Positions 22,515-38,983 of a DNA stretch of 64,000 nucleotides are shown here, piece by piece; the first letter of the stretch is position 1; every line of letters starts with the position of its first letter. The stretch lies in assembly GCA_036734945.1 (NCBI GenBank), contig DAIMXP010000002.1, positions 70,981 to 134,980 on the forward strand, written 5' to 3'. The notes below the pieces were generated by a model. It was not told the origin of the DNA. It did not search any database and saw nothing but the letters and a program-made list of their open reading frames with translations. This DNA is from Chloroflexota bacterium (GTDB taxonomy: Bacteria; Chloroflexota; UBA4733). The translations under genes were made by a program, and so were the position numbers.

Positions 22515-22594
22515 GGAACGCAAGGAATCTTTTGCGATTGTAGACCGTTCGCAAACGCAACTTTGCGCCCGCTTGCCGTATAGTCCCTGCAGTC
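22515..22594 (+). promoter_or_regulatory. conserved upstream element U1 of the peptide cassettes (operator/promoter candidate)
   Basis: About 80 bp, near-identical to 25938..26017. Contains the palindrome TTTGCGA-N11-TCGCAAA (22531-22555), then TTGCGCC-N7-CGTATAGT. Ends 46 bp before the MauE-like start. Confidence 0.5.
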
Positions 22595-22640
22595 CTTCAC
22601 ACTCTTGCTGGGCACCGTGGAGTTGCGGTGGAGAGAAGCC

Positions 22641-23219
22641 ATGGCATCGAATACCGTCGCGCAGGTGCAACTGGTGCTGCGGCTGACGCTGGGTTTAATC
22701 TTCCTGGCCTCCGCGCTGGCGAAGTTACGTCATCCAACGCTCTTCGTGCGCGGCGTGCTGGACTATCAGGTGCTGTCAACACCGTTGGCGGGGGCGTACG
22801 GGCGGCTGCTGCCGTTCATCGAACTTGGGACGGCACTACTACTGTTCAGTGGCTTTCTTCTGTTGATCGCCATCGGGCTTTCGATACTGATCCTCCTCAG
22901 CTTTGCTATCGCCATCGTGGTAGTCCTGACGCACGGGCGGCAGTTGCGCTGTCACTGCTTCGGTGAGGCTTCCACCGGATATGTCGGCTGGCATACCCTT
23001 GGTCGAGATGTGCTGCTCTTGCTCGTTGCCCTGTGCCTACTGGTCCTGGTGCACCTAACAGGTGGAAGCGCCCCCGGTTGGCTGAGTACTGACTTTGGCT
23101 GGGACGCTGTTGCGTTTGCCACTGCAGCGCTCATTGCGCTCACCTATGAACTGATCGCGCAGGGACTTGATGTGCTCATGAGCTTGCGGCATCCGCGGGC
23201 CATTGGGGAGCGGTGGTAG
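22641..23219 (+). CDS. MauE/DoxX-family redox-associated membrane protein (cassette A)
   Basis: Multi-TM protein. LRLTLGLIFLASALAKLRHPTLFVRGVLDYQVL ... RCHCFGE is the MauE-type pattern. ATG at 22641 follows GGAGAG. Confidence 0.8.
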   Translation: MASNTVAQVQLVLRLTLGLIFLASALAKLRHPTLFVRGVLDYQVLSTPLAGAYGRLLPFIELGTALLLFSGFLLLIAIGLSILILLSFAIAIVVVLTHGRQLRCHCFGEASTGYVGWHTLGRDVLLLLVALCLLVLVHLTGGSAPGWLSTDFGWDAVAFATAALIALTYELIAQGLDVLMSLRHPRAIGERW

Positions 23220-23237
23220 CAGGAACAAGAGGATGGA

Positions 23238-23867
23238 ATGGGTGCCGAAATGTGGTGGCATGTGGCTACGATTATCGCCTTGGTCCTGGCGGCGGCCGAG
23301 GCCATCTTACTGCTCGGTTTGACGCGGGTGGTAGCGCCGCTTGTGACAGGATCTGGTCCACGGCAATCGGCCGAACGCGGGGTGGCCGTGGGGACAATAA
23401 TGCCGGCAATGCGGTTGCCGGCGGCGGATGATGGGTGCCTGCAACCCGTGATCGGAGACGGCATCGATCGTGTCGTGCTTTTCATTTCACCGTCCTGCCA
23501 CGTATGTACCACCGTGCTACCAACGCTGCAGCCAGCAATTACACAGAGTGGTCGCCGTTGGGAGGTCGTCGCGGTAGTTTGCGGTCCACGAGCGGCTGCT
23601 GAGGAATACGCGCGCGCTATCGATCCACGAATACGCACCTTGCTTGATCCAGACAGCGCGGTCGAATCAGCCTTCGCGACCGGTCGCGCCTACCCCTTTG
23701 CCTTTGCCGTCAGCAGCGAGGGGATTGTTCGCGCCCGAGGTGTGGGAGGAAGTTGGGAAAGGCTGAATCACCTCGTGGCTGAGGGCGCAGGTGCTGGAAG
23801 ATTTACATCCGAGGCCGTGATAACCAGCGTCGTGGCGGCGGATCGGTCCGTTGTCACTCGTGGTTAG
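23238..23867 (+). CDS. membrane-anchored thioredoxin-like protein, divergent MauD-like (cassette A)
   Basis: N-terminal TM helix (WWHVATIIALVLAAAEAILLLGL) followed by VVLFISPSCHVCTTVLPTL (CxxC on a thioredoxin-like fold). Confidence 0.65.
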   Translation: MGAEMWWHVATIIALVLAAAEAILLLGLTRVVAPLVTGSGPRQSAERGVAVGTIMPAMRLPAADDGCLQPVIGDGIDRVVLFISPSCHVCTTVLPTLQPAITQSGRRWEVVAVVCGPRAAAEEYARAIDPRIRTLLDPDSAVESAFATGRAYPFAFAVSSEGIVRARGVGGSWERLNHLVAEGAGAGRFTSEAVITSVVAADRSVVTRG

Positions 23868-23896
23868 GTGCAAAGGACAAGAAAGGAAGTTGGGCC

Positions 23897-24169
23897 ATGA
23901 CTGATCTCAGTGGACGTTCGGCGATTTGGATAGGAGAGCAACTGAATCGGCGCGGGTTTGTCGGCCGCTTGGGCCGGGCAGCGACGCTAGCGACGTTTGT
24001 GGCGGCTGGTTTGGCGCTGGTGGCACCGGAGATTGCCAGTGCGGACTTACCCTGTTGCTCTAGCTGCTTGGTGTCGTGCTGTGATTCCATGTCCTGTTAT
24101 TGTTGCTCCTATAACACGGGGCAGTGCCCCAACGCTTCGTGCTCCGGCACGTGTAATCCTACCTGCTAG
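23897..24169 (+). CDS. Tat-signal cysteine-rich precursor P1 (49-aa leader + 41-aa core, 12 Cys)
   Basis: NRRGFVGRLGRAATLATFVAAGLALVAPEIASA | DLPCCSSCLVSCCDSMSCYCCSYNTGQCPNASCSGTCNPTC. RR motif, hydrophobic region and AxA cleavage site. Confidence 0.8.
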   Translation: MTDLSGRSAIWIGEQLNRRGFVGRLGRAATLATFVAAGLALVAPEIASADLPCCSSCLVSCCDSMSCYCCSYNTGQCPNASCSGTCNPTC

Positions 24170-24198
24170 CCGGGCGCGCATCCGCTAGGATACGTCCA

Positions 24199-25686
24199 AT
24201 GGAGGGATCGTTAACGACACGCCGAGCCGTCCTGGGTGTGCTTGCGGGCGGGATCGCGGTGGCGCTAAGTAGCTGTGCTGCCCCAATGCCGTCCCTCCCA
24301 TTCCGTCCGACGCCGCTTCCGACCCGAGTCACCGTTGTGGTCGGTGACGCCTACGTACACGCCACCGGTGATCCAGCGCACCGCGAGACGCAGGTCATTA
24401 ACCTAGACGACTCAGTGCCCAAATGGGTGACAGCGGCCGAGGAGATGCTGCGTGGACGGGTAGCGATGACCGTTCAGACCGCCGACCTTCTCCATGCTAC
24501 CTTCTGGCAGGAAATTACTGCCGGGGGCGTGACAATGGAGCAGCGACTGTATCTCACTAGCCACGCCATGCTCTGGCGTTTGCGTGCCGGGGGCCTCGTC
24601 GCGGACGTACATGGGCAGATGGCACAAGACAAGGGCCTGGCGGGAGGGCGCCTCCATCCAGATGCGGTCGCCGCGCTACAATGGCAAGGACAGCAAGCGG
24701 GACTGCCGGTGGCACTCTGGCCGATGCTGGCGGCAACGGATGCGCGGCTGCCGGCGCCACCAGTTGATTGGACGTGGGAGGATGCCGCCAGACTTCCTGC
24801 GGGCGCCGGGTGGCCGGTGCAGCTCATGCCCAATGCTCCACCACTGGAGGCGTGGCTCTGGTCCCATCAGGCTGACCTCGCCACAGCGGATGGGTCCAAG
24901 CTGTTGATTAACGAGTCAACGGGAATAGCCGCGCTCGCCGCCTACGCGCGAGCGTTCGGGCCGACTGGGGCCTTGAGTCCATTGCCTGGTGGCACAACGC
25001 CGTTCGGCGCAATGCCTCAGGTGATTCAGGCTTGGACAGCGCAGGCAGTGGCCATGCGGGACCGACAGATACAGAACCGGCAGGTCGTCGCGTGGTTCCC
25101 CGCTGATGAGTGGCCGCCCACTACCACCGGCGCGCATCGTTGGCAGGATGCCGTTGGCTCGCTGCGTCGTCTTGCCTCACCGGGCGCGACACAGTCTGGC
25201 CTGCCCATGGTCGTATACGGGCTGGGCATCCCTAACGCTGCCCCCAAGCCCGATCTCGTGTATCAGGTGGCACGGGCATTGCAAGATGCGGCGCCCAAGT
25301 TCCTTGCGTACTCGCCGTTCAGGCTCGACCAGGGTGCGGACGGGCTGCGACGCCAATGGGGCCAACTCGATATAGACCAGGCGGCGATGCTGGCGCAGCT
25401 CCTCACGCTTCACCTTCGCCCGGTCTGGGGAGTTCCCCGTCCGCCGTTTGCCTTGGGTAACTGGCCGCTGGGCGATCCGTCCACGATCACCGATGCCATG
25501 CAGTTCACCGGCACAGGACCGACTGGCATGCTTTCCAACCAGGCAGAAACCTCTGCCATGTTCGACGCGCTGACCAAGAGCGTGAGCCTGGTAACGGCGC
25601 TCCGCATTCTGGCACCGGGAGCTACTGCTGCCAATGCTGGGCATCTGCTCTCCGTCATCTTCAGGCTCATGGCGCAGCCGGCTTGA
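24199..25686 (+). CDS. orphan solute-binding-protein-like lipoprotein L1 (cassette A)
   Basis: TTRRAVLGVLAGGIAVALSSC (RR plus lipobox). The central region loosely resembles ABC family-1 SBPs and the paralogue at 38984..40450. No permease or ATPase is nearby. Confidence 0.6.
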   Translation: MEGSLTTRRAVLGVLAGGIAVALSSCAAPMPSLPFRPTPLPTRVTVVVGDAYVHATGDPAHRETQVINLDDSVPKWVTAAEEMLRGRVAMTVQTADLLHATFWQEITAGGVTMEQRLYLTSHAMLWRLRAGGLVADVHGQMAQDKGLAGGRLHPDAVAALQWQGQQAGLPVALWPMLAATDARLPAPPVDWTWEDAARLPAGAGWPVQLMPNAPPLEAWLWSHQADLATADGSKLLINESTGIAALAAYARAFGPTGALSPLPGGTTPFGAMPQVIQAWTAQAVAMRDRQIQNRQVVAWFPADEWPPTTTGAHRWQDAVGSLRRLASPGATQSGLPMVVYGLGIPNAAPKPDLVYQVARALQDAAPKFLAYSPFRLDQGADGLRRQWGQLDIDQAAMLAQLLTLHLRPVWGVPRPPFALGNWPLGDPSTITDAMQFTGTGPTGMLSNQAETSAMFDALTKSVSLVTALRILAPGATAANAGHLLSVIFRLMAQPA

Positions 25687-25937
25687 GGTAGGTACTGGGA
25701 AGTGGAACGTTTTGCATCCCCCGCCTGAGGCACGCCATAGCAGCAGGGATAGGAGGTCACCGCCAGGCTACATACGTCGATTCGACCAGGTAGGCTACCA
25801 CGCTTGCTAGCCGGATGTTGACAGTGCGTCCCTACGGTGCGCAACTGCAGCGCTTGCAAGGGGATGCGCCAGAGCAACTGGTGCTCTTTTTCCACGACAG
25901 CCACGGCTATTGGGTCGCCCTGGGACCACCAGCCGTT

Positions 25938-26017
25938 GGAATGCAAGGAATCTTTTGCGATTGTAGACCGATCGCAAACACAAATTTGCACCAACTTGTC
26001 GTAGTGTGGTTGCAGTC
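25938..26017 (+). promoter_or_regulatory. conserved upstream element U2
   Basis: GGAATGCAAGGAATCTTTTGCGATTGTAGACCGATCGCAAACACAAATTTGCACCAACTTGTCGTAGTGTGGTTGCAGTC. Near-identical to U1 and ends 25 bp before the MauD-like start. Confidence 0.5.
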
Positions 26018-26042: not shown

Positions 26043-26600
26043 ATGACTGGAATTTGGCTCACCGCATTCGTGGCCCTCTGGCTAGTCGTGCTGCTTCTCG
26101 TAGCCATCGTGATCGGGGTGCTTCGCCACATCGGTATTCTCTATGGTCAGATGGTCCGTTCTTCGGGACCTCCAACAGAGTTGCGTATCGGGCAGTTGCT
26201 GCCAGACCTGAATTTACTGACGTCCAATGAGACAACAATGACCATCGGCCAATTCGCAGGAAGAATCTCAGATGTCGTTTTGATTAGTCCCGGATGCACC
26301 GAGTGCGAAAGGCTACTGGATCTCTTGGTAGAGGGCGATGTAGCCGGAGATCCAGCGGATAGACGAGTGATCATCAGCATAGGAGATATGCTGGCGACAC
26401 GCGAGATCCTGCAGAGTCATCAGGTTAGTCTGGATGATACAGTCTTGATCGATACAGGGGACAAGATTAGAAGGTTGTGGGGAGCCCACACAACGCCCGT
26501 GACAATTGTGGTTGACGAGCATTTAATGGTGGTGAGACAGGTCGTAGGTGTGGTCGATTCTCGGCACCTTCTACCTTTACCACAGCAGATTTGTGTTTAA
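26043..26600 (+). CDS. MauD-like membrane-anchored thioredoxin (cassette B)
   Basis: MTGIWLTAFVALWLVVLLLVAIVIGVLRHIGILYGQ ... VVLISPGCTEC. Same architecture as the copies at 31041 and 37721. Confidence 0.8.
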   Translation: MTGIWLTAFVALWLVVLLLVAIVIGVLRHIGILYGQMVRSSGPPTELRIGQLLPDLNLLTSNETTMTIGQFAGRISDVVLISPGCTECERLLDLLVEGDVAGDPADRRVIISIGDMLATREILQSHQVSLDDTVLIDTGDKIRRLWGAHTTPVTIVVDEHLMVVRQVVGVVDSRHLLPLPQQICV

Positions 26601-26679: not shown

Positions 26680-27096
26680 ATGCCAGGAGCACCGTCGGTC
26701 AATGTGCGGCCGTTGTCGCCAAAGCGGGACATTCCCGGTATCCTCTGGTCTTATACGCCGACATTGGGCGACGTTGGTGACGAGGCGTACTTGGGGCGCA
26801 TCGTAGTGGAGGTTACCGATGACGCAGAAAGGGTCGTGTTTATCGGTGTGAATGAGTCGATCGCTCGGCGGGCTGCAGCAGCCCTACAAGGAGGACATTC
26901 GTTTCCGCGGTCGGCCACCATTTGGCCGACAGTACCGATTACCGGAGCGGTACCCTCCGGGCAAATATATCGAGGGAGGGTGATTCTGGAATTCTGGAGT
27001 TCTACTATGAACATCGCGGTCTCAGAACTCGGCGGAAGAGCCGCCGAGTTGGTACTGCGCGCAGGCAAGGTGCTGGAGTCCTTCCCGGCTGCGTAG
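26680..27096 (+). CDS. uncharacterised cytoplasmic protein, cassette-specific family X (copy 1)
   Basis: 138 aa, with no signal peptide or TM segment. Shares YLGRIVVEV...IWP...YRGRVILEFW with 31699..32145 and 33757..34200. Confidence 0.7.
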   Translation: MPGAPSVNVRPLSPKRDIPGILWSYTPTLGDVGDEAYLGRIVVEVTDDAERVVFIGVNESIARRAAAALQGGHSFPRSATIWPTVPITGAVPSGQIYRGRVILEFWSSTMNIAVSELGGRAAELVLRAGKVLESFPAA

Positions 27097-27260: not shown

Positions 27261-27620
27261 ATGAACGAGAAGCTGACTGTGCTGGATCGACTGACGAGGT
27301 CTGCGGCATTACGGCTGTCACGTCGTCGTCTTGGTGGGAAAGTGCTGACAGCTGGTCTCCTTGCAGCGCTCGTACAGTTATTCGGGTTGGGTGTGCTGCC
27401 TGCCTATGCCATCACCTGCTGCGGTGATCCCTATTGCAAAGACTGCAGTGTGACATGCAGTGGCTGTGCGTGCGGCGGCACGTATAGCGGCGTGGTTTGT
27501 AGTCCAAACGGGCTGTACTGTGCGGATGACACTTGTCCCGATTGCTACGGTTATCTCTATAAGTGCTGTGCTTACGCGTGTAATAGCGGCTGCACAGGCG
27601 GATATTTGTCGGTATGCTGA
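27261..27620 (+). CDS. Tat-signal cysteine-rich precursor P2 (50-aa leader + 69-aa core, 16 Cys)
   Basis: ATG follows GGAGG. MNEKLTVLDRLTRSAALRLSRRRLGGKVLTAGLLAALVQLFGLGVLPAYA | ITCCGDPYCKDCSVTCSGCACGG...CSPNGLYCADDTCPDC...LSVC. Confidence 0.8.
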   Translation: MNEKLTVLDRLTRSAALRLSRRRLGGKVLTAGLLAALVQLFGLGVLPAYAITCCGDPYCKDCSVTCSGCACGGTYSGVVCSPNGLYCADDTCPDCYGYLYKCCAYACNSGCTGGYLSVC

Positions 27621-27868
27621 AGATGGTCCGTGGAAGGAACGGGATGTCGCGCCGATGGTGATCGGCAGCGCCGCCATGAGTGGCATGAGCAACTGCTCCA
27701 TCTGATCTTGGGCTGTTGTCACACTGGTGCTGTATGCTCCACATGCCCCCGTACAGGAGCCTTTGGAGATATCGTGGTGAGAAGAAGCATGAAGATTTCC
27801 GGTAGGTTTTCTAGAACGTCTCAACCGGGTAGTTGCCGAAGTGCCTATGTCGTTATGGCGTCTATATA

Positions 27869-28225
27869 ATGGCAATATTCTTCCTAATCAGCCATCTAAT
27901 TAGTGGGATATTATTTCTGGAAGCTGCAGACGAAGCCACAGTCGCGGCTTCGTTGACTACTGCGACAATGTCAGCCACGACAACGTCCGCCCAGGTTGCA
28001 AATGTCTATCATTGTTATGTATCATCCTATGCGTATTCACCAGGGGAAGCGGAAAATTTTCCTCCTCAATGGAGAGGGCAGCCGCCTGTGAGTATCGATC
28101 ATGAGCACACTGTTGTATCTTCCTACTACGTTTTGCCTCTGCCATCGACCAGCGAGTGTGTCTGGAGAGATTCGCGGGGCGCACATGTCCAGTTGAGACA
28201 GCTTCGGGAGGCTCCTGGAGACTAA
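27869..28225 (+). CDS. hypothetical small protein with N-terminal hydrophobic segment (weak call)
   Basis: MAIFFLISHLISGILFLEAADE... lies in a visibly AT-richer stretch. No recognisable family, and a competing minus-strand ORF exists. Confidence 0.25.
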   Translation: MAIFFLISHLISGILFLEAADEATVAASLTTATMSATTTSAQVANVYHCYVSSYAYSPGEAENFPPQWRGQPPVSIDHEHTVVSSYYVLPLPSTSECVWRDSRGAHVQLRQLREAPGD

Positions 28226-28434
28226 TACTCGTTGCTGCTGCGAAATGAACGTGGCCTGCGACGATATACTTGAGATTGCTGGCTATGAGTCCCCAGCCGA
28301 CATGAGGAAAAAACGCCAGGGCTGCAATCGTTGCATTCGCGGAAGGAGCGTCGGCAAGGTTAGAGCATGCCACGTGAACGTGTTCACGCGCGGTTTGCGC
28401 AGCCTGCCGGCGCCGGATCCGACATGGAGGCGTG

Positions 28435-29931
28435 TTACGCCGGCGGTACTGTACCTTTCACGAACTCGGTCGGGCTCAGGATGGTGCGATCTTCCGGCGT
28501 TGTCTTCGCGCACATCTCTCGTCCACGGCGCTTGAGTTCCTCGACGACATCTTGACGCGCCTTCCAAGGCAGCAGCTCCAATTGGCGCTGGAAGAGGCTG
28601 ACGCCGTGGACGAGAAACGCCACGGAGATTTCGGGGTCCAGCAGCCGCCAGGGAACGTCGCGGAGGATCGTCTGCACGTCCTGCAGCCCCGCCTCCCGGA
28701 AGCACTGCGCCGTCTCGCCGGGCACTGGGAGACGTCCGGGGAGGAGCGGCGGCGAGCCGCCCTTGCTATGCTGCCGGGCGAGGTCCAAGATCGGAGCGAA
28801 CCACTCCCGGCACCAGGGCTGATCGAGGGAGAATTGGCATGCTGACCACACCGCAACAGCACCACCGGACTTCGTCACACGCCGCATCTCCGTCAGCGCT
28901 CGCGGCGCCTCCGTGAGGTGGAGGAAGGACGTGCCCACGGTAGCAGCGAAGGCGCCGTCGCGGAACATGGGCAAGTGCTCGGCCGCTGCCCGGGTGAAGG
29001 TGACGTTACGGGCGTGCCGCTGCTTGGCCTTCGCCTTTGCCCGCTCCAGCATGCCGGGGGCGGGGTCTGTGGCGACGATCGAGCCGGTCGGTCCGATGGC
29101 CTCCCACAGCCCGCCCTCGAAGGTCTGGGTGGCCATGCCGCAGCCTACCTCCAGCACCTTGCCGCCGATGGGCAGCGACGCGAAGGCGGTAAATGCCTTG
29201 CGGCCTTCCAGGGCATCCGGCACCATTTGGGCGACCCGGGTGTCCCAATCCGCGAAGAGGTTGAACTGAGACAGGTAGATCAGCTGGAGCCGCCGCTCCA
29301 GGTAGCCGGAGGACTCCAGGACCTGACGCACCTCGTGGTAGTGCGCCTCGCCGAACGTGGTCTGCACCACTACCCGCCGCCCATCTCGCACCTCCATGGC
29401 GAGGAGGCCGGCGGCGATGCCGCCCAACAGTTCATCGTTGAGGGCATAGCCGACCCAGGGGCGGTGCAGTTTGCCGCGTACGAAGTCCTCTTCGGCGATA
29501 GCCCCGTAGTGGCGGACGGCGGTGTGGTTCTCGGCGAAGGTGACGACGCCGTAGACCCGCACCAGGGCCCCGAAGCCGCGCGCGGCGACGAAGCGGCGCA
29601 CGCGGGCGATCGCCATGGCTGCGAGGTCGGGACTGACGCGGATGCGCCCGAGTGTCTCGTGCGCGGCGGCTGCGGCCGTGGAGACGAGCGTCTCGTGGGC
29701 AGCCGTCCGCCCCATACGGATGGGGGCGGGGTAGCCGTCGAGAACCTGAGTGCGCAGGGGCTCCTTCCAGTGATCGACAGCGAGTTGGGCCGCCTCCTGA
29801 GCGAGCTGGTCCTGGCTGTCGAAGGCGATATATTCCTGTTCCAGCCCGGCGAGCCAGGGATCCACAATCAGGCCGTCCGCCAGGAAGGCGCGCAGGTCGT
29901 CCTCCAGGCCGACCAAGAGCGGCGGCGGCAT
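28435..29931 (-). CDS. class I SAM-dependent methyltransferase with ~250-aa N-terminal domain of unknown function
   Basis: I chose the start MPPPLL at 29931, preceded by AGGAGG. Motif I is VLEVGCGMA, with DPAPGMLERA downstream. It is the only minus-strand gene inside the cassette array. Confidence 0.8.
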   Translation of the reverse strand: MPPPLLVGLEDDLRAFLADGLIVDPWLAGLEQEYIAFDSQDQLAQEAAQLAVDHWKEPLRTQVLDGYPAPIRMGRTAAHETLVSTAAAAAHETLGRIRVSPDLAAMAIARVRRFVAARGFGALVRVYGVVTFAENHTAVRHYGAIAEEDFVRGKLHRPWVGYALNDELLGGIAAGLLAMEVRDGRRVVVQTTFGEAHYHEVRQVLESSGYLERRLQLIYLSQFNLFADWDTRVAQMVPDALEGRKAFTAFASLPIGGKVLEVGCGMATQTFEGGLWEAIGPTGSIVATDPAPGMLERAKAKAKQRHARNVTFTRAAAEHLPMFRDGAFAATVGTSFLHLTEAPRALTEMRRVTKSGGAVAVWSACQFSLDQPWCREWFAPILDLARQHSKGGSPPLLPGRLPVPGETAQCFREAGLQDVQTILRDVPWRLLDPEISVAFLVHGVSLFQRQLELLPWKARQDVVEELKRRGREMCAKTTPEDRTILSPTEFVKGTVPPA

Positions 29932-29980
29932 CAGGCACTCCTTCCTCCTGGGGAAGACGTGGGCGGACGCTCCCCGATTA

Positions 29981-30721
29981 TTGCGAGTGTATGCTATCCT
30001 CGTTGGCAAACCTCGGGGCCGGCGGCGCCACTCCCTCACGCAAAGCCGGTTCTTGCTCACCACGAGTCGGCACTTCCGGTCGCTCCTAGATGAGATCCTC
30101 CTGCAGTACGACCTCACGGCGACGTCGGCCACGTTGCGGGCGGCGCTGGAAGACCGGGAGCAGCCGGTCGTGCTCCTGCACGTCGAGCGCTGGGATACGG
30201 AGGCGGCGGGCCTCGTTGGGCGTCTGCTGGAGAGCACACCGCACGTCTACGTCATCTGTCCGCAGGCGGCCGATCTGCGCGTCGTCATCACCGTCTTGAA
30301 GACCGCCGCCGCCGATGCAACCGCTGACACCCCGCTGGCATAGCATGCCCTCGCGCTCAAGATTCGGCGGGTCGTGCGGGAACCGGAGCCCTGGCAGTGG
30401 CAGCTTGGTAGCCGCCGCTTCGTCCCGGCGGAAGGCCGTCTGTACGATCAGGGAAAGCGTATTGCGTTGACGGCAGCGGAGGTGCGGCTGCTCCGGCGGC
30501 TCTGCCTGGTCAGCGGAACGGAACCGCCCGGACGGTTGACGGTGGAGCAACTGGCATGGGAATTGGGCGGTAAGGCGACCAGCCGCGTGTCTTCGGCCCG
30601 CAACTACATCACGCAATTGCGGCGCAAGCTGGGCGATGATCCCAAAAAGCCGGTGATTCTCCGGCGCGACCGGGACGGGTATTGGGTCATCCTCGGCCTC
30701 CTCCCGGAACCATTGCATTGA
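29981..30721 (+). pseudogene. OmpR-type regulator with pseudo-receiver domain, interrupted by in-frame TAG (30341-30343)
   Basis: ORFs 29981..30343 and 30374..30721 share one frame. The read-through junction is ...ADTPLA*HALALKIRRVVRE, which falls in the receiver-output linker. The receiver lacks the acidic pocket and the phospho-Asp (FLLTTS, VLLHV). The output domain is LTAAEVRLLRRL...ITQLRRKLGDD...RDGYWVI. Confidence 0.6.
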
Positions 30722-30751
30722 CAGCACCGGGCCACCCCAACGCAACCCCCA

Positions 30752-30805
30752 ATTGCAAATTTGTCGTTATTGCAAGGCCAAAGTTGCAGCATCCTGTCGT
30801 AGACT
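30752..30805 (+). promoter_or_regulatory. upstream element U3 (diverged relative of U1/U2)
   Basis: ATTGCAAATTTGTCGTTATTGCAAGGCCAAAGTTGCAGCATCCTGTCGTAGAC. It keeps TTGCAA-N11-TTGCAA and TTGCAGC-N7-CGTAG at the same relative spacing as U1/U2. Confidence 0.4.
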
Positions 30806-30863
30806 TCTGGGAACCTATCCCCTGGTACGGGCCTGATCGCAGATCCTGCGGGGAGGACCGGGT

Positions 30864-31010
30864 ATGACGTCGAGTGGTCTCACCGAGGTGCAGCTGGCGC
30901 TGGGGCTGATCTTTCTCATCTCCGCCGGGGCCAAACTGCGCAACACGGCCGCTTTTGTGCGCGGACTGGCGGATTATGATGTCAAACTCTTCTCGATGAT
31001 GGCCACATAG
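30864..31010 (+). pseudogene. MauE-like N-terminal stub (48 codons)
   Basis: Own translation: MTSSGLTEVQLALGLIFLISAGAKLRNTAAFVRGLADYDVKLFSMMAT*. It aligns with the first ~45 aa of the MauE-like proteins at 22641 and 37107 and then stops. Confidence 0.6.
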
Positions 31011-31040
31011 TGCGGTAGTACTATATGTTGAGGAGCATCT

Positions 31041-31610
31041 ATGAGCGGTCTTTGGCTAGTCTCGTACGTTGTCATGTGGATCACTATTCTGCTCGTCGTT
31101 GCCTTGCTAATTGGAATCCTAAGGCATATTGGAATATTGTACGAACAGAGCGGCCGGCACCGAGCGTCGACTGATCTTCGTGCAGGTCAGGTTCTTCCTG
31201 ACCTCACCTTGAGTACCTTCGACGGAAGTCGTCTCCGCATATCTCATTTTGCGGGACATGCGACACATTTCGTGGTTGTGGCTCCTAACTGTTCAGCTTG
31301 CGGCGAGTTGCTGAGTCGCTTGCAAAAAGCAGCCAGCGACGACAGCGGTGCCATGGAACGACACGTCATCGTGAGCATGGGAAATCGGGCGGCCACGGCG
31401 GAATTACTTCAAGTGGCCGGAATGGTGCCTAATAGCTCGGTTCTAATTGATGAAGATGAGAAGATCAAAGGGGCTTGGGGAGTTCGGGCTACTCCGGTCA
31501 CACTGGAAGTTGACGAACAACTGAAAGTACTTAGGCAGATCATAGGTGCCGCCGACCTACGTCAACTTCCTCCACTAGTGCAACTCAGCGGAGCGCCGCA
31601 AGCAAACTAG
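31041..31610 (+). CDS. MauD-like membrane-anchored thioredoxin (cassette C)
   Basis: MSGLWLVSYVVMWITILLVVALLIGILRHIGILYEQ ... FVVVAPNCSACGELL. Confidence 0.8.
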   Translation: MSGLWLVSYVVMWITILLVVALLIGILRHIGILYEQSGRHRASTDLRAGQVLPDLTLSTFDGSRLRISHFAGHATHFVVVAPNCSACGELLSRLQKAASDDSGAMERHVIVSMGNRAATAELLQVAGMVPNSSVLIDEDEKIKGAWGVRATPVTLEVDEQLKVLRQIIGAADLRQLPPLVQLSGAPQAN

Positions 31611-31698
31611 CATCCGCTCCCGTAGAGCGAGAGGTGACTCAACAGCCAGATGGGCAGGTATTGCAGATCCTGTGTAGGCGGAAAGTTGAGGTGAGGCG

Positions 31699-32145
31699 AT
31701 GGCTACCGGTTCAAGTGGCCTAATCCCGGCGGTAGTCCCTATGCCAGGTTCCGGCCGGTCATCACCGGTTGCAGCTGTTCCAGGAGTCTGGGCGCACTTC
31801 ACGACCCTTGGGACTGTAGCCGGTGAGCAGTATCTGGGACGCATCGTGGTCGAACTGTTCGATGGGCGTGATCCCCCCGCGGTGGCCTTCATTGGCGCAG
31901 ATCGACAACTCGTTGAACGCGCAGTCGCCGCCTTGGGTGGGGGGGATGTGCCAGGGCCGGAACCTGCTATGTGGCCAGCCGGATCAATCATCGTCCCCAG
32001 CGAGCCAGCCGCAGCGTATCGCGGGCGGATCATGATGGAGTTTTGGCAAAGAACGGTGAAAGTTACCGCGTCGGGATCTGCTGGCAATACGGCGGATCTT
32101 GTCCAGCGAGCACTTCAGGCTTTGCAACGGGTTGGAGCGAGGTAG
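31699..32145 (+). CDS. uncharacterised cytoplasmic protein, family X (copy 2)
   Basis: YLGRIVVELFDG...MWPAGSIIVPSEPAAAYRGRIMMEFW. Paralogue of 26680..27096. Confidence 0.7.
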   Translation: MATGSSGLIPAVVPMPGSGRSSPVAAVPGVWAHFTTLGTVAGEQYLGRIVVELFDGRDPPAVAFIGADRQLVERAVAALGGGDVPGPEPAMWPAGSIIVPSEPAAAYRGRIMMEFWQRTVKVTASGSAGNTADLVQRALQALQRVGAR

Positions 32146-32312
32146 CTGCTCTTTGTCGCCTTCCGACTTCGTACGAGACTAGTTCAACTGGAGCGTCCTT
32201 CTGTAAAGACAAGTGGTGGGTGGCGTCGCTTAGCTCCTGATGTTCAATTGCCAAAACGCAGCGGAGTACCGCAAGCAAACAAGCATCCTCATTTAGTCGG
32301 GGGAGAGGCCGG

Positions 32313-32702
32313 ATGGATATGACCAGGCACGACGTGACAGACAGACTCGGCGATCAACGCGCGGAACTGGGAGCATTCGATCGACTGACCAAAGCAACAG
32401 CGCTAGCATTGTCTCGGCGGCGAGTGCTAGTCGCTGGAGTGGTTACCTGGGCGGTACAACTGCTCGGCGTCGAGATCGCCAGCGCAAACGCATGCGAGTA
32501 CGGGTGCAACACTTGCTGCTTCGCTGCATGCGGGAATTGCGGCGTTTGTCCACCGGGAGGTGCCATGTGTTGCAGCTCAGGCGGCGTTTGCCAATCGGTT
32601 CCTTGCTGCAGGTGCGGAAGTTGTGGCGCATGTGGCTACTTTAGTCTTTGCTTCAAGGTCTGTGATGATGGCTGTAGTGAGACTTGGTGCCCCGCATGCT
32701 AG
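32313..32702 (+). CDS. Tat-signal cysteine-rich precursor P3 (58-aa leader + 71-aa core, 20 Cys)
   Basis: ...AFDRLTKATALALSRRRVLVAGVVTWAVQLLGVEIASA | NACEYGCNTCCFAACGNCGVCPPGGAMCCSSGGVCQSVPCCRCGSCGACGYFSLCFKVCDDGCSETWCPAC. Confidence 0.8.
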   Translation: MDMTRHDVTDRLGDQRAELGAFDRLTKATALALSRRRVLVAGVVTWAVQLLGVEIASANACEYGCNTCCFAACGNCGVCPPGGAMCCSSGGVCQSVPCCRCGSCGACGYFSLCFKVCDDGCSETWCPAC

Positions 32703-33201
32703 GCGACACGCAGTGTTATGGCGATGGAGCGGCATGATCATTAGCAGAGGAGGCTTGGTCGGCGCCTGGAAAGAGTCCGCTCGGATGAAGACACTCCATC
32801 AAGTTGAACGCCCTCGCGGTAGCGCGGGGAGTGTTGTTCCACTTCGGATGCGCGTCTCTGAATCTGGTGGATGAGCGGGAAGCACCCTGTCTCTGCCGAT
32901 CTGGCCAACCAAGCGCAGGAGGCACCTTGAATGGTGGGATCGTGGAAAAGATGGTGACTGAATTGCTCGGGCAGGCGAAGTACCAATGCAACGGCGCCCA
33001 AGTACGCGCCGACGCAGCGAGATTGAAGCCGGGGAGTCTGCTAAGAGAATCACGCTGATGATCGGTCGCCGCTCATTGATGGCGGAAGGTGTGCGTGTAA
33101 CCAGAGAAGCCATTGAGATGCGACAGAATTGACAGTTGGCACCAATTGGCCCAGCGCTGTTGGGCGATTGGGCGTCACCGCCTTAGAAAGGAGCGATTAC
33201 C

Positions 33202-33618
33202 ATGGAACCCGATGCCGCGGCCACGCAATGGAGCGCGGCCCTTCGCAAATCCGGTACCTTCGATCGGCTGATCAAGGCTACGGCGATCAGGCTGTCTCGT
33301 CGCCGCTTCGCCGGGAATGTGCTGGCCGCGACAGCGGCCGCCTGGGCGGTGCAGCTATTAGGCTTCCCTACGCCCCCCGTATATGCATTTGACTGCACCA
33401 ATTGCAATTGCTGTACCGGTGTCTGTAGCTGCCTATACGCCCCCGCGAGTTGTTGTAGCCCGAATGGTGTCTACTGCTACTCGGGAGATTGCACTTGTCA
33501 GGGTCGAGACTGTCAGTGCGGATGCTTTGCAATGTTCTTCAACGTCTGCAATGACGGATCACATGCCACGAGTTGCCCGGCCTGCAACTACCCTTGTCCA
33601 ACCTGCAACCCTTGTTGA
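33202..33618 (+). CDS. Tat-signal cysteine-rich precursor P4 (62-aa leader + 76-aa core, 20 Cys)
   Basis: ATG follows AAAGGAG. ...TFDRLIKATAIRLSRRRFAGNVLAATAAAWAVQLLGFPTPPVYA | FDCTNCNCCTGVCSCLYAPASCCSPNGVYCYSGDCTCQGRDCQCGC...CPTCNPC. Confidence 0.8.
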   Translation: MEPDAAATQWSAALRKSGTFDRLIKATAIRLSRRRFAGNVLAATAAAWAVQLLGFPTPPVYAFDCTNCNCCTGVCSCLYAPASCCSPNGVYCYSGDCTCQGRDCQCGCFAMFFNVCNDGSHATSCPACNYPCPTCNPC

Positions 33619-33756
33619 GACAAGTCTGACCTCTTACGAAAATTCTCGAAGTGGGGGAAGTGTGTTTCTTCTCGCGAGAGAGCAAGCGGGTTCTGGGTTG
33701 ACGGTTACAGCAGAGCGTCAATGAGCGGTGAGGTAAAGCTTCGAGGAGGTGGCATA

Positions 33757-34200
33757 ATGTCAGGAGTCGGTTATCAGCCAACATTCGCGCCAGTACGAGT
33801 GCCCCAACAATGGATCGCCCGAATAGGCCCGAGTAGTAGTCCCGCCGTTTGGTCATTGGTTCCGACATTGGGGCGGGTGGCTAGCGAGAAGTATTTGGGC
33901 CGCATCGTGGTAGAGGTCTTCGACACTGGAGGTAAAATCGCCCTGCTTGGCATCGGGAAGGAATACATCCCACGGGCGATCGCGGCTCTGCAACAGACGG
34001 GGGCATTGCCGCACGAGACGACAGTTTGGCCTTCCGAACCAATCATGGGCCACCAATTACCCGACCAGACCTACCGTGGCTGAGTTGTCGTTGAGATGTG
34101 GGAGGTGGGTACTAAAGTGAATGGATCGTCCAGCACCGATGCGAGCGTAAGCTTGTTGCATCGAGCCAGCGAGGCCTTGAGGATTTTCCCTATCCTGTGA
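33757..34200 (+). pseudogene. family X paralogue (copy 3) with in-frame TGA at 34081-34083
   Basis: KYLGRIVVEVFDTGG...VWPSEPIMGHQLPDQTYRG*VVVEMWEVGTKVNGSS...ALRIFPIL*. The TGA replaces the Arg of the conserved YRGR(V/I)xxEFW motif, and the frame stays open to 34200. Confidence 0.6.
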
Positions 34201-34966: not shown

Positions 34967-35554
34967 GTGCGACTTGACTATCTCAACGAGCAGACGGCCG
35001 TTCGTCTCTGTCAGCGAGGCGATCCTGCAGGTCTGGCTTCGCTCGTGCTGCGACAACAGGCTGAAGCGCTCAGAGTGGCTGCGTTGATCACCCGAGATCC
35101 GCAACTCGCGGAAGATGTCGTGGCGGATGCCTTTCTCACCGCGTTTCGACGCATCCATAGCTTTGATGCTGAGCGCCCGTTCCGGCCTTGGTTCCTGCGC
35201 GTGGTTACGAATACGGCGCTGAAGTCGCTCCGCTCTCGTCGTCGCGAGATACCCTGGCTTGCTACTGCGGATCATGGGTCGTCTACGGTACCCGTGCCCT
35301 TCGGTATCGCTGCGCGGGCGGAGGAGAGCACAGCCAAGGACATAGCGACGGTAGACGATCATGAAACCGTCCGTTGGGCACTGCGGGCACTTCCACCGAA
35401 GCAACGCGCTGCGATCATTCTCAGGTACTTCGCTGATCTGAACGAAGGGGAAATCGCGCTGGCACTGGGCATTCCAAGGGGAACGGTGAAGTCGCGTCTT
35501 TCCAATGGAATTGCTCGCTTGCGCGTCAAACTCGTCGAGACCTGGCCATCCTAA
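34967..35554 (+). CDS. ECF-type sigma-70 family factor (1)
   Basis: Region 2 (AEDVVADAFLTAFRRIHSFDAERPFRPWFLRVVTN) and region 4 (LPPKQRAAIILRYFADLNEGEIALALGIPRGTVKSRL). GTG start. Confidence 0.85.
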   Translation: MRLDYLNEQTAVRLCQRGDPAGLASLVLRQQAEALRVAALITRDPQLAEDVVADAFLTAFRRIHSFDAERPFRPWFLRVVTNTALKSLRSRRREIPWLATADHGSSTVPVPFGIAARAEESTAKDIATVDDHETVRWALRALPPKQRAAIILRYFADLNEGEIALALGIPRGTVKSRLSNGIARLRVKLVETWPS

Positions 35555-35572: not shown

Positions 35573-36931
35573 ATGGATCCGTCAACCATTCGCCAAGTCC
35601 TGGAAGAGGAAGCCGAAGTATTGGTTCCTTTCCCTGCCGATCTCAGGCCACGCGTTCTGCTAGCGCTCAGCGCTGAGCGCGCCGCCGCGCAGAGACGGCG
35701 CTTTGGTGTCGTTGGAGCCATCCTTGTGGCGGTTGTCGCGCTTGCCGTCACTCTGGGGCCCGCCTACGCGGGCGCTATCGGCCAAGACGTGGTCGCGCGA
35801 CTGCAGGTAGCGCTTGGTGGAAGGACCGAAGTGCAAATGCAGCGCGACGTGCAAGCGCCAGTCGCTGTCGCTCCCAGTCCTCCCTTTTCCGTATTCCAGC
35901 CGACCGCCCTTCCCGTGGACCTGCCGCGTCGTGGGGTGACCTATGACCCCGGCGCGATAGACCCCGCTACGGGGCTGCGCTTACCCTCGGTGGAGGGAAC
36001 AGGTGACGTCGACTACGTGCGCCTTGGTCTTCGCATCGAGCGGCGGGATGCGTTTCTCCTCGTGCGCTACGTCGGCTCAGCCGACCGGGGCACCGGGGGT
36101 CGCGAACTCATTCTACTCGAGCGCCAGGCGACACACGCGGAGCAACTTCCCGCTGGCTCCCGCATGCAAGTCCTCGGTCAGCCAGCGTCACTCGGAAGGA
36201 CAGCGAACGGGCTCCTGCTGTCCACCATCATGAGTGGTACCTGGCTACAGGTCTGGACGAATGTGAGTCAGATGGAGCTGGATCAGGTTGTGCGAAGCTT
36301 ACAAATGACTTCCCCTGGCAACGGCGCACCGGCACCTCCGACCTATCCAACGGCGACACCCGCTCCCAGCCCTGTTCCCGGCAGCTATCCTCCCTTAGTG
36401 CATCCGACATATCTCCCGGCCGGCTTCGACAACGCGAGTATCGGCTACTTTACGATCCCTCCTGAGGGCCAGAACCTCAGGCTTCCACCGTTGAATTCCG
36501 GGGTCTCCGGGCCGGTCCGACGATCGGACCTCAAGCCGATTCTGGAGCGGCTTGACTGGCCGCAAATCGAAAAGGCCTGGAACGCCGTAGGAGGCGGCGT
36601 GTTCGGAGGCTTCTTTACGGGCGACACCAAGTTGGACTTTCTTGAGATCGGACCGGTCCGTCTCGATGGCAGCCCGGATGGCACTGCTATGACCACCGAC
36701 GGAGGCCGCACCGTCTGGATGGTCGGGAGTGAGGCAGGCGCCGGGTTCAAAGCCCGCTGGCGAGACGGTTCTCCTTTGGATCTCACGGAGAGCTACCTTG
36801 CCCAAAACCCCAATCCCAGAGCGCGAGAGGTAGTCATCTGGGTCGATGGAGATCGCGTCGTGTGGCTACGCTCCGACCTACCGCAGACCGAGATGCTCAG
36901 ATTCATCGACGGGCTGACGACGAATCGCTGA
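35573..36931 (+). CDS. single-pass membrane protein, putative anti-sigma factor with large extracytoplasmic domain
   Basis: Starts 19 bp after the sigma gene. Short cytoplasmic N-terminus, then TM segment FGVVGAILVAVVALAVTLG, then ~380 aa outside the membrane. No zf-HC2 motif was seen, so the role is inferred from position. Confidence 0.5.
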   Translation: MDPSTIRQVLEEEAEVLVPFPADLRPRVLLALSAERAAAQRRRFGVVGAILVAVVALAVTLGPAYAGAIGQDVVARLQVALGGRTEVQMQRDVQAPVAVAPSPPFSVFQPTALPVDLPRRGVTYDPGAIDPATGLRLPSVEGTGDVDYVRLGLRIERRDAFLLVRYVGSADRGTGGRELILLERQATHAEQLPAGSRMQVLGQPASLGRTANGLLLSTIMSGTWLQVWTNVSQMELDQVVRSLQMTSPGNGAPAPPTYPTATPAPSPVPGSYPPLVHPTYLPAGFDNASIGYFTIPPEGQNLRLPPLNSGVSGPVRRSDLKPILERLDWPQIEKAWNAVGGGVFGGFFTGDTKLDFLEIGPVRLDGSPDGTAMTTDGGRTVWMVGSEAGAGFKARWRDGSPLDLTESYLAQNPNPRAREVVIWVDGDRVVWLRSDLPQTEMLRFIDGLTTNR

Positions 36932-37106: not shown

Positions 37107-37682
37107 ATGCCGCTCGCGATCACGTCAGCGGTTCAAGCCGGTTTAGCATTCTTTGTCGGTGTCGTTCTCCTGCTCTCCGGCGCTCCAAAAATCGCGGCTC
37201 CGCGCTCGTTTGTCCGTGTCGTGGTCGATTACGAGGTGCTTCCTACCGCACTCGCGCGCCTCTATGGCGTTGCATTGCCTTGGGTGGAGTGCGTGGTTGG
37301 TTTGCTGCTGCTGACCGGCTTCTTGTTGCAGGTCGCGGCCGGGCTCGCCGTCCTCACATTCGTGAGCTTCTTGATCGCGGTGTCCATCAATCTGCGCCGT
37401 GGGCGCGACATGGACTGCCACTGTTTTGGCGACGCTCTTTCTGATCGCATCGGTCGGAGTACGGTCGTGCGCTTGGTGTTGGTTCTTATCCCTTCCTTGC
37501 TTGTGCTGCTGTCCGCGCCGCCGGGAGTAGGCGGTCCCTGGATCGGTGGTCAGGCCTCACGCCTCGGTGGCGATCTTGGGATTCTCCTTCCGCTAGCCTT
37601 CGTGTCCCTCACGCTGGTGTTGCTGTACGTCCTAGTGACGCAGGTGCTCGCCATGGCCGAACAGCGGGCGAGTAATGCCTGA
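37107..37682 (+). CDS. MauE/DoxX-family redox-associated membrane protein (cassette E)
   Basis: GVVLLLSGAPKIAAPRSFVRVVVDYEVLP...LPWVECVVGLLLLTGF...DCHCFGD. Confidence 0.8.
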   Translation: MPLAITSAVQAGLAFFVGVVLLLSGAPKIAAPRSFVRVVVDYEVLPTALARLYGVALPWVECVVGLLLLTGFLLQVAAGLAVLTFVSFLIAVSINLRRGRDMDCHCFGDALSDRIGRSTVVRLVLVLIPSLLVLLSAPPGVGGPWIGGQASRLGGDLGILLPLAFVSLTLVLLYVLVTQVLAMAEQRASNA

Positions 37683-37720
37683 TACGCCATTGGGGTAAAA
37701 CACGAAAGGAGCGTTGATCG

Positions 37721-38347: not shown

Positions 38348-38398
38348 GCACGCTCCAACTCGGGAGTATTCGAGGCAGAGTAAGAGGGAGTGGCGGCG

Positions 38399-38788: not shown

Positions 38789-38983
38789 TGACGGTTGAGG
38801 ACGCTCGCCGACAATATGAGGAGGCGTCCGTTCTCGCTTCGGCGGCGAATGCTATTCACTCGGGGGATCAGCAGAATGGTCGATCCTGGATTTTGCGTAC
38901 GATGGCCATGACCGTGTTGACGCCATTCCAGGCCGCGACGATGATGCAATCGAAGCCGGAGGAACTGCAGGAGATAGTCCCCC

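Follow-up and report, generated by a model that had tools for sequence, protein, structure and literature searches.

A conserved leader box adjoining the Tat motif in precursors of putative exported disulfide miniproteins

The window analysed here, a 64 kb stretch of DNA taken as a whole, carries three genes (P2, P3 and P4) for small precursors whose leaders have in common a 12-residue box, (L/F)DRLT(K/R)xAA(L/I/V)xL, fused to the Tat motif SRRxF (Table 1). A shared box had been proposed for these leaders in the initial annotation, and all three strings that it quoted were found in place on the forward strand. A six-frame regular-expression scan of the window returned exactly three matches to the box.

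Table 1. Box-bearing precursors, their cassette genes and neighbouring genes in the window
Feature	Position	Strand	Description	Basis
MauE, P1 cassette	22605..23219	+	Intact, CHC site; neighbouring cassette	
MauD-like thioredoxin, P2 cassette	26043..26600	+	Membrane-anchored, CTEC; no MauE gene in front	
Family X, copy 1	26680..27096	+	138 aa, no signal peptide; directly upstream of P2	
P2 precursor	27261..27620	+	119 aa; predicted Tat leader of 50 aa ending AYA; mature part 69 aa, 16 Cys	Shine-Dalgarno site GGAGG 7 nt upstream of 27261; family alignment
P2 box	27282-27329	+	LDRLTRSAALRL + SRRR (string VLDRLTRSAALRLSRRRL)	Sequence scan, alignment
Winged-helix (Trans_reg_C) regulator	30374..30721	+	First gene of P3 cassette, as in L001	
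MauE remnant, P3 cassette	30864..31010	+	48 aa, N-terminal part only, without CXC site	
MauD-like thioredoxin, P3 cassette	31041..31610	+	Membrane-anchored, CSAC	
Family X, copy 2	31699..32145	+	148 aa, no signal peptide; directly upstream of P3	
P3 precursor	32313..32702	+	129 aa; predicted leader of 60 aa ending ANA; mature part 69 aa, 20 Cys	
P3 box	32376-32423	+	FDRLTKATALAL + SRRR (string AFDRLTKATALALSRRRV)	Sequence scan, alignment
P4 precursor	33202..33618	+	138 aa; predicted leader of 62 aa ending VYA; mature part 76 aa, 20 Cys	
P4 box	33259-33306	+	FDRLIKATAIRL + SRRR (string TFDRLIKATAIRLSRRRF)	Sequence scan, alignment
Family X, copy 3	33721..34200	+	Directly downstream of P4; in-frame TGA (34081-34083) at a conserved Arg	
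ECF sigma factor	34967..35554	+	Same neighbour after the module in L001, L014 and L104	
452-aa protein	35573..36931	+	After sigma factor; candidate anti-sigma factor by position only, no family match	
MauE, P5 cassette	37107..37682	+	Second intact copy, CHC site	

The box would be lost from these proteins if translation began downstream of it, a possibility that the initial annotation had raised. Shine-Dalgarno sites (GGAGG, GGAGAGG and AAGGAG, respectively) precede the ATG codons of P2, P3 and P4 at a spacing of 5-8 nt, which places the starts upstream of the box and leaves 7, 21 and 19 residues N-terminal of it. In P4, there is no in-frame start codon between M1 and RRR.

Relatives of these precursors are few. 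A word-indexed search found four, each with the box, and a leader profile recovered 20 family members, counted as peptide-sized cluster representatives, among 1.84 billion representative proteins; the family is rare and undescribed. Across it, the predicted Tat leaders are 48-65 aa long and consist of a variable, mostly acidic N-extension, the 12-residue box, SRRxF, a hydrophobic region of about 20 Gly/Ala-rich residues and an AxA-type site, the last present in nearly all 20 members (AYA, ANA, VYA, ASA, AEA and similar sites before the first Cys). This is the tripartite n/h/c layout, with a signal-peptidase site, of a Tat signal peptide, and the leaders agree with the S/T-R-R-x-F-L-K consensus: the RR is invariant, S occurs in 18 of 20 members and F at +2 in 15 of 20, and several members have exactly SRRxFLK. 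The third arginine of SRRR is dispensable, as SRRV, SRRH, SRRS, SRRN and SRRT also occur, so the 3' part of the box as originally drawn is the canonical Tat motif SRRxF(L)(K/G). The 12 residues before it thus form the family-specific portion of the conserved segment. We infer from sequence that the precursors depend on Tat and that their leaders are cleaved.

Cysteines are absent from the leaders of all 20 members, and the mature parts (60-81 aa) have 10-20 of them, in even number in every case, which suggests that the mature products are disulfide-packed miniproteins. The even count points to disulfides only, with no cofactor; in Pfam and NCBIfam searches of the precursors no cofactor motif or cofactor-family match was found, so the cytoplasmic cofactor of a REMP-type substrate is not apparent. 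P4, whose closest relative is P0004 of L001, shares CSPNG(L/V)YC with P2, as had been observed. However, the cores are not hypervariable apart from their cysteines, as was claimed, because CCSPNGxxC and (V/I)C(N/D)(D/G)G....CPxC are conserved across the family alignment. Given this conserved framework, the premise of a conserved leader joined to a hypervariable core was overstated.

The box itself is the most conserved part of the 20 precursors outside the Tat motif, with an identity of 0.53; the h-region (0.34), c-region (0.30), core (0.28) and N-extension (0.12) are all less conserved. Its D and central A, like the RR, are invariant or nearly so. Box codons are near synonymous saturation (pS 0.75, pN 0.25), with a pN/pS of 0.34 versus 0.54 in the core; for instance, the box codons of P3 and of the L016 peptide differ at 14 synonymous positions and one non-synonymous position. 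Since the differences are mostly synonymous, the box must be translated and selected as protein. It is kept in every relative found, far beyond chance, as the initial annotation would predict. Its proposal that the box is a recognition sequence is upheld with regard to translation, purifying selection and conservation exceeding that of the h-region, c-region and core, but not with regard to the hypervariable core. We consider this pattern to be what a recognition element would look like.

The box is also specific to the P2-P4 precursor family: an HMM of it scores below zero with MauA, P1, P5 and the other Tat leaders in the window. P1 and P5, the two precursors of the window without family X, have no box, and neither do two lipoproteins of 495 and 488 aa that are also Tat substrates of this genome. 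Within L001, two precursors have nearly identical leaders (pS 0.3) and saturated cores (pS 0.84).

In related loci, the usual operon encodes a MauE-like oxidase with a CXC site, a MauD-like thioredoxin with CxxC, the precursor and family X, and this order recurs in L001, L002, L013, L014, L101 and L104. The mauE-mauD pair lies directly upstream of a small Cys-rich substrate in L001, L002, L013, L101, L104 and the P1 and P5 cassettes of the window. That box cassettes lack an intact MauE, as stated earlier, is true of this window only: a full-length MauE with a CXC site is directly upstream in L001, L002, L013 and L104, and L101 likewise has a MauE with this site directly upstream, cut by the contig end. 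In the window, the MauE of the P1 cassette could serve the box cassettes in trans. In all 14 independent places whose flanks could be read, family X adjoins the precursor, consistent with the co-occurrence noted at the outset, and X is, as judged from these flanks, an obligate neighbour of the box precursor. A modifying enzyme had been suggested as the partner of the leader, but the cassettes have none besides the MauE/MauD disulfide pair, and no RRE, modifying enzyme, leader protease or transporter occurs among the neighbours in the 14 places. Neither the window nor any related locus has a tat gene.

Family X has no relative in Pfam, NCBIfam or PADLOC or among PDB sequences, and a Foldseek search with its model gave a best E-value of 0.12 and TM below 0.3. 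We rejected X as a member of a known Tat chaperone family (NapD, TorD/DmsD/NarJ, HyaE/HybE or FdhE), as neither sequence nor fold matches. The model consists of two repeats of a beta-hairpin plus helix, not a winged helix, and the invariant polar residues (GRxxxE in both repeats) are on predicted beta-strands. One X is present for the two precursors of L001. An orphan X adjoins IS genes. A hydrophobic N-terminus is absent in 9 of the 12 X proteins examined, and the X of L101 and L104, found later, also appear signal-less. The three others (L013, L098 and L007) have an N-terminal hydrophobic segment with KD19 above 2.2, a putative signal or anchor. Because the N-flank of the L098 protein is strongly positive, its X domain should lie outside the cell; X domains predicted outside the membrane, as in these three, could not meet an n-region. 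The box is intact in the precursors adjoining X in L013 and L098 (no precursor lies near the X of L007).

Co-variation between the box and X, which had been proposed as a test of their pairing, was not found. In Mantel tests on 13 pairs, which are related and near-saturated so that contact and co-inheritance are not fully separable, X divergence does not follow box divergence (r -0.01, or -0.28 controlling for MauD) and tracks the mature core instead (r 0.69; partial r on MauD 0.70, p 0.0008). No charge complementarity was found either. Bacteriocin-immunity pairs would show the same pattern, with a cognate neighbouring gene diversifying along with the mature part, as X does here at a Mantel r of 0.69.

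Our tentative reading is that the box could be a cytoplasmic-side docking element of an exported disulfide miniprotein precursor made by the four-gene module. The box may well be bound by some trans-acting factor, and X probably contacts the mature core; it is doubtful that X is the factor that binds the box. We suspect that the mature domain is the main partner of X, which is also a possible reader of the box. In this scenario, the box would dock on the cytoplasmic side, probably as a helix together with the Tat motif, and binding at the box before export would hold back the reduced, unfolded Cys-rich chain until it is handed over to the Tat receptor. After export the leader would be cut off, and MauD and MauE would then introduce 5-10 disulfides. 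X would act as the cognate partner of the mature domain, as escort or folding helper, and the invariant box may offer it a second point of attachment.

It is also conceivable, if rather unlikely, that X never touches the box and is the cognate partner of the mature Cys-rich domain only. X could then be a dedicated folding template or subunit acting outside the membrane, which exits by its own signal (L013, L098 and L007) or, in its signal-less forms, rides through Tat bound to the precursor, and the box would be read by conserved parts of the export machinery, for example the TatBC receptor or a particular Tat paralogue, or by another conserved cytoplasm-facing component. That X divergence follows the core and not the box would fit, as would the three X variants with signal or anchor segments, two of them beside precursors that keep the box. 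A highly conserved reader would also suit a box that is nearly invariant where X, MauD and the cores have about 35% identity, and hitchhiking would account for the use of Tat by a cofactor-free substrate. However, the box is confined to precursors with X, and its absence from P1, P5 and the two lipoproteins makes a general Tat requirement unlikely; moreover, hitchhiking of X is only hypothetical, and the loci lack tat genes of their own.

We regard as improbable that the module encodes toxin-immunity pairs, in which the miniproteins would be secreted bacteriocin-like toxins, X the immunity protein, and the box no more than a conserved stretch of leader common to a gene family, maintained as recombination exchanges the cores behind it. 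One-to-one adjacent pairs, three of them in one locus, the co-divergence of X and core, the orphan X beside IS genes, integrase and phage-like genes adjoining the module in L001 and L002, and the lower synonymous divergence of leader than core within L001 all speak for such pairs. Across genomes, however, the box retains its amino acids although its codons have reached synonymous saturation, so recombination alone does not explain the conservation; toxin activity is putative, with no PADLOC or other family match, and the stop codon in the third X beside an intact P4 would be awkward for an essential immunity gene. Finally, it is very improbable that the box has an intrinsic role without a dedicated reader, for example as a positive helix on the cytoplasmic membrane surface, or in N-in topology, slower Tat engagement or protection from proteolysis. 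The net charge of box plus RR(R) is +3 to +5 in all members, a model of the leader shows one continuous helix from the box through the h-region, and a co-varying partner of the box was not detected, which is in keeping with such a role. The leader model is of low confidence, however (pLDDT about 50), and the D-R-L-T-K run and central A are conserved regardless of helical face, which exceeds the needs of a generic amphipathic or charged segment.

The arrangement resembles NapA-NapD, TorA-TorD and DmsA-DmsD in that the gene of a small protein adjoins that of a Tat substrate with extra conserved leader sequence next to SRRxF. In NapA, the epitope to which NapD binds overlaps the RR motif at the N-terminal end of the signal peptide, which takes a helical form upon binding (PMC3712460); the specificity of TorD and DmsD is in the h- and c-regions, not the n-region (PMC3316669). 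However, X resembles none of NapD, TorD/DmsD, HyaE and FdhE in sequence or fold. Unlike REMP substrates, the substrates here are disulfide miniproteins of 60-81 aa that show no trace of a redox cofactor. Unlike REMP chaperones, X co-varies with the mature part, not the leader, and in three variants seems to be exported or anchored outside.

A leader more conserved than the core, with a small non-enzymatic protein beside the precursor, also recalls RiPPs whose leaders are read by an RRE (PqqD-like). We rejected an RRE-dependent RiPP precursor: an RRE, modifying enzyme, dedicated protease and ABC exporter are all missing from the module in the 14 places, the X model is not a winged helix, and the leader is a predicted Tat signal peptide with a signal-peptidase site. 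Candidate RiPP families of Streptomyces from decRiPPter have mauE (and mauD) next to precursors with at least 8 Cys (PMC7794033), and thus similarly place mauE or mauD beside a small Cys-rich precursor outside methylamine metabolism. In contrast, those precursors are 57-66 aa long and have short leaders with neither a twin arginine nor the box (PMC7794033, S2 Table), and an X-like gene was not reported for these families.

A parallel in gene order is the mau cluster, which in Paracoccus yeei has the same oxidase-thioredoxin-substrate arrangement (mauE-mauD-mauA). MauA is likewise a small, disulfide-rich substrate (12 Cys), and its long Tat leader, mentioned in the initial annotation, is 57 aa in P. 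yeei. Aligned with the box leaders, however, a MauA leader shows generic Tat similarity only (mean shuffle z 2.3; box HMM -1.9 bits), the mature parts are not homologous by Pfam or NCBIfam, and MauA has no X. The genes mauB, mauG, mauF and that for amicyanin are absent; the genes called at the loci include no homologue of mauB or mauG. The precursor was rejected as a MauA homologue in a mau cluster on the lack of a family match and of mauB and mauG. A pairing of CXC MauE with a thioredoxin-fold partner outside the mau cluster is known for the general DsbB-like MauE, which replaces DsbB experimentally (bioRxiv 10.64898/2026.03.05.709764); dedicated substrates, Tat leaders, the box and family X are not described in that study. 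The same pairing here supports oxidative folding as the job of the module.

Five Cys-rich open reading frames were found in the window, four strong ones (P1-P4) and a fifth, P5. P2, P3 and P4 are alignable end to end and contain the box strings quoted for them in the initial annotation; a six-frame scan of the 64 kb gave exactly three box matches. Shine-Dalgarno sites lie 5-8 nt upstream of the ATG in all three genes, and P4 has no further in-frame start codon ahead of its RRR, which rules out the suspicion that the true translation starts lie downstream of the box. ClpB assigns the source organism to the Chloroflexota, being 77% identical to the protein of an uncultured Chloroflexia MAG and about 64% to the hits that follow.

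Features of the window that bear on the box precursors and their cassettes
Feature	Position	Strand	Remarks
P1 cassette	22605-25686		MauE, MauD, Tat precursor P1, Tat lipoprotein (24199-25686)
P1	23897-24169	+	Cys-rich ORF
X1	26680-27096		ahead of P2
P2	27261-27620	+	Cys-rich ORF; GGAGG before ATG
MauD-like thioredoxin	26043-26600		P2 cassette
MauE remnant	30864-31010		48 aa
MauD-like thioredoxin	31041-31610		
X2	31699-32145		ahead of P3
P3	32313-32702	+	Cys-rich ORF
P4	33202-33618	+	Cys-rich ORF
X3	33721-34200		after P4; in-frame TGA at 34081-34083
P5 cassette	37107-40450		MauE, MauD, Tat precursor P5, Tat lipoprotein (38984-40450)
P5	38390-38788		Cys-rich ORF
83-nt direct repeat	22512-22594 and 25935-26017		83% identity; just 5' of MauE (22605) and of MauD (26043)
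34-nt repeat	31582-31615 and 32255-32288		88% identity; 5' of X2 and of P3
Methyltransferase ORF	28435-30237	-	600 aa; between P2 and P3 cassettes

Only four precursor relatives outside the window turned up among 5.8 billion proteins in a word-indexed search. A profile of the leader alone, run against 1.84 billion cluster representatives, gave 20 peptide-sized matches of 118-143 aa, plus two large proteins judged spurious, and additional members were taken from the DNA of related loci (given here as L numbers). In an alignment of 20 precursors, mean pairwise identity is 0.12 in the N-extension, 0.53 in the 12-residue box before the Tat motif, 0.78 in the SRRxF motif, 0.34 in the h-region, 0.30 in the c-region and 0.28 in the mature core (0.17 at its non-Cys positions). 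The box and Tat consensus reads (L/F)-D-R-L-T-(K/R)-x-A-A-(L/I/V)-x-L-S-R-R-x-F, with the D kept in 19 of 20 members and the central A and two R invariant. The box is confirmed and extended to a family. Other residues can take the place of the third R, so the box as first delimited has the canonical Tat motif SRRxFLK at its 3' end (PMC3712460).

Nei-Gojobori counts gave pS 0.75 and pN 0.25 (ratio 0.34) for the box and pS 0.84 and pN 0.45 (ratio 0.54) for the mature core; between P3 and the L016 peptide, the box codons differ by 14 synonymous changes and 1 non-synonymous change. Synonymous saturation with so few amino-acid changes indicates that conservation acts on the protein; neither gene conversion nor a conserved DNA or RNA feature can account for it. 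The segment FRDLTVQLARAEARRGF of P5, which resembles the box by eye, was rejected at -2 bits against the box HMM.

The leaders (48-65 aa) are Cys-free, with an AxA-type site at the end, and the mature parts (60-81 aa) have 10-20 Cys. All 20 members have an even mature Cys count, as do P1 and P5, which is expected if all Cys were paired in 5-10 disulfides per domain; such unbroken even counts would imply complete disulfide pairing, with Cys gained or lost in pairs. Beyond the CSPNG(L/V)YC of P2 and P4, the cores had been described as hypervariable apart from their cysteines; they are not, with CCSPNGxxC and (V/I)C(N/D)(D/G)G....CPxC present across the whole family. A low-confidence AlphaFold2 model of the precursor (pLDDT 63) shows a single helix that runs through both box and h-region, together with a beta-rich core, and had no PDB match by Foldseek at E 0.001. 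Sequence profiles of the PDB returned only the NapA signal peptide (E 0.22, insignificant), and Pfam, NCBIfam and PADLOC gave no match to the precursors. A search of 5.8 billion proteins with P5 found only P5 itself.

Family X, the small partner protein, adjoins a box precursor in all 14 independent places with readable flanks (the window three times, L001, L002, L008, L013, L014, L015, L016, L098, L100, L101 and L104). The usual gene order is regulator, MauE-like oxidase, MauD-like thioredoxin, precursor and X, with an ECF sigma factor often coming next. The P1 and P5 cassettes have intact MauE and MauD and a Tat lipoprotein of ~490 aa, and have no X. Box leaders had been linked to cassettes without an intact MauE, a pattern that holds in the window only: L001, L002, L013 and L104 encode full-length MauE with the CXC site, and the MauE of L101, truncated by the contig end, retains the CXC. 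The absence of an intact MauE is thus peculiar to the two rearranged cassettes of the window, near which lie two intact MauE genes.

X proteins have a disordered, Pro-rich N-terminus followed by about 110 conserved residues that are internally duplicated (W..PTLG..YLGRIVVEVF..RA.AAL, then WP..PI.G..YRGRVV.ELW..A..AL). The AlphaFold2 model repeats a beta-hairpin and helix twice (pLDDT 77, pTM 0.73). X had no relative in Pfam, NCBIfam or PADLOC; PDB sequence profiles gave only uL6 (E 0.018, insignificant), Foldseek searches of the PDB with the model gave no match at E 0.001, and profile scans of genome and metagenome contigs gave nothing. Among 5.8 billion proteins, X had just eight relatives outside the window. 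Reading frames closed just upstream make a signal peptide impossible in 9 of the 12 X proteins examined, and the other three (L013, L098, L007) have a strongly hydrophobic N-terminal segment. For L098, an N-flank charge of about +5 predicts that the X domain would lie outside the membrane. The X of L006 (378-953) and L007 (1469-2044) is an orphan variant of 191 aa whose N-terminus resembles a signal peptide ending in AWA-Q; its neighbours are transposase-like or IS genes, and the flanks contain no Cys-rich ORF. In X3, the in-frame TGA stands in place of an Arg that nearly all relatives conserve (YRG[R]VVVEMW), with the frame open beyond it as far as 34200, so that X3, beside an intact P4, may be a pseudogene or carry a sequencing error. 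In L100, the N-terminal part of a MauE is joined in frame to one X repeat (FLGRVIVEFWDG...) at 3491-3832; a complete MauD-precursor-X set follows a few genes downstream, and the fusion was probably left behind by a rearrangement.

A test of co-variation between the box and X had been proposed. In Mantel tests of 13 precursor-X pairs, a small, related and near-saturated sample in which contact and co-inheritance are not fully separable, X showed no correlation with the box (r -0.01, p 0.54), a correlation with the h-region (r 0.45, p 0.0035) and a stronger one with the mature core (r 0.69, p 0.0002). MauD, available at 11 loci, served as a proxy for shared history (r 0.40 with X; r 0.26 between MauD and core). 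Partial on MauD, X versus core gave r 0.70 (p 0.0008), X versus box r -0.28 and X versus h-region r 0.15, and the correlation with the core holds with the closest pairs removed. These results indicate that it is the mature domain, and not the box, with which X diverges in step. The charges of X and core showed no complementarity (r -0.02). Relaxation of the box where X is membrane-anchored was also rejected, given that the L013 and L098 precursors keep the box and rank 14th and 16th of 20, neither being an outlier.

X as box reader is still favoured by its strict co-occurrence with the box, by P1 and P5, which lack both, and by L001, where one X serves beside two precursors with near-identical leaders and saturated cores. 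The invariant GRxxxE of both X repeats could be a match for the invariant box. The proposal that the box is a recognition sequence for a dedicated partner is partly supported: the box has the properties of a recognition element, but the evidence does not demonstrate that X reads it. The two L001 precursors (1898-2290 and 3179-3580) flank the single X; their leaders show pS of about 0.3 and 1 non-synonymous box change, and their cores pS 0.84 and pN 0.49, as if either the leader had been homogenised or the core exchanged behind a common leader.

Our best reading, held tentatively, gives the box a docking role on the cytoplasmic side of the Tat leader, before the reduced Cys-rich chain is exported. 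MauD and MauE would oxidise the chain after export, and X would mainly partner the mature domain, possibly clamping the box as well. An X that makes no contact with the box, which conserved export machinery would read instead, is rather unlikely; the Mantel values agree with it, and the strict co-occurrence speaks for X. We consider it improbable that precursor and X, paired at every readable locus and correlated through the core, are toxin-immunity pairs. Least probable is a role intrinsic to the box with no reader.

We also give little credence to a more elaborate scheme, Tat quality control for a cofactor-free substrate. Here a signal-less X would bind the reduced miniprotein and clamp the box, so that only X-loaded precursor reached the Tat receptor, and X would then hitchhike through Tat along with it. 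Outside, X would act as a template steering MauD and MauE to the single correct pairing of up to 10 disulfides, and the two steps would have come apart in lineages whose X acquired a signal peptide.

The closest working analogy is the pairing of a dedicated chaperone with a Tat signal peptide. In the NapA leader, the NapD site is at the N-terminal end and overlaps the RR motif, and the bound peptide is helical (PMC3712460); for TorD and DmsD, recognition is through the h- and c-regions (PMC3316669). X belongs to none of the NapD-, TorD- or DmsD-type families, and the substrate here is apparently cofactor-free. MauA with MauE and MauD is the closest genetic analogy, although the cores are not MauA homologues and no mau gene beyond MauE and MauD is present. 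Homology of the box to the long MauA leader was not borne out (box HMM -1.9 bits; local alignment z about 2.3, a generic Tat similarity). The mauE-mauD-substrate order is the same in a genuine mau cluster on a Paracoccus yeei plasmid (NZ_CP020445), and a conserved N-terminal MauD helix, considered as a feature of the box class, also occurs in the genuine Paracoccus MauD. MauE can replace DsbB and has a CXC active site, with MauD as its likely DsbA-like partner (bioRxiv 10.64898/2026.03.05.709764), which points to a module that serves to fold an exported miniprotein oxidatively. Streptomyces clusters that pair mauE, and in one case also mauD, with precursors containing at least 8 Cys have been put forward as candidate RiPP families (PMC7794033); the precursors, of 57-66 aa, have short leaders that lack both the RR and the box. 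RiPP leader recognition was rejected here, as no RRE, modifying enzyme, leader protease or ABC exporter was found. A scan of the window for TatA-like motifs gave none, and a literature search found nothing on MauE/MauD together with Tat cysteine-rich peptides.

These families touch on why disulfide-only proteins of the MauA type use the Tat pathway and very long leaders, and on how a chain of 70 residues that forms up to 10 disulfides can be folded correctly in the cell. They offer a compact, testable four-gene case with a sharply defined leader motif, an orphan-fold partner and natural variation in whether X has its own signal peptide. The newly proposed MauE/MauD oxidative folding pathway gains dedicated natural substrates, and two annotation-free protein families, the miniprotein and X, are added, so far from metagenomes only.

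Several smaller features were noted around the cassettes. In L008, a box precursor and X occur together with a 485-aa protein; by eye, the latter shares LDQPAAIQGVT(F/C)WRDL with the 488-aa protein of the window, and the only direct BLASTP comparison, with the 495-aa protein, gave E 0.004. The methyltransferase ORF (600 aa, class I domain) has no equivalent at that position in related loci (the Methyltransf_19 of L103 is unrelated and several genes upstream) and is thus probably unrelated to the module. A 34-nt repeat lies upstream of X2 and P3. Integrase, phage replication and HTH genes lie near the module in L001 (7127-8020) and L002 (2020-6376 and 18689-19756), so the module may sit in mobile or variable islands. 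The 83-nt repeat holds the palindrome TTTGCGA-N11-TCGCAAA and, where MauE is absent, directly adjoins MauD; an operator or promoter common to both cassettes is a candidate role for it.
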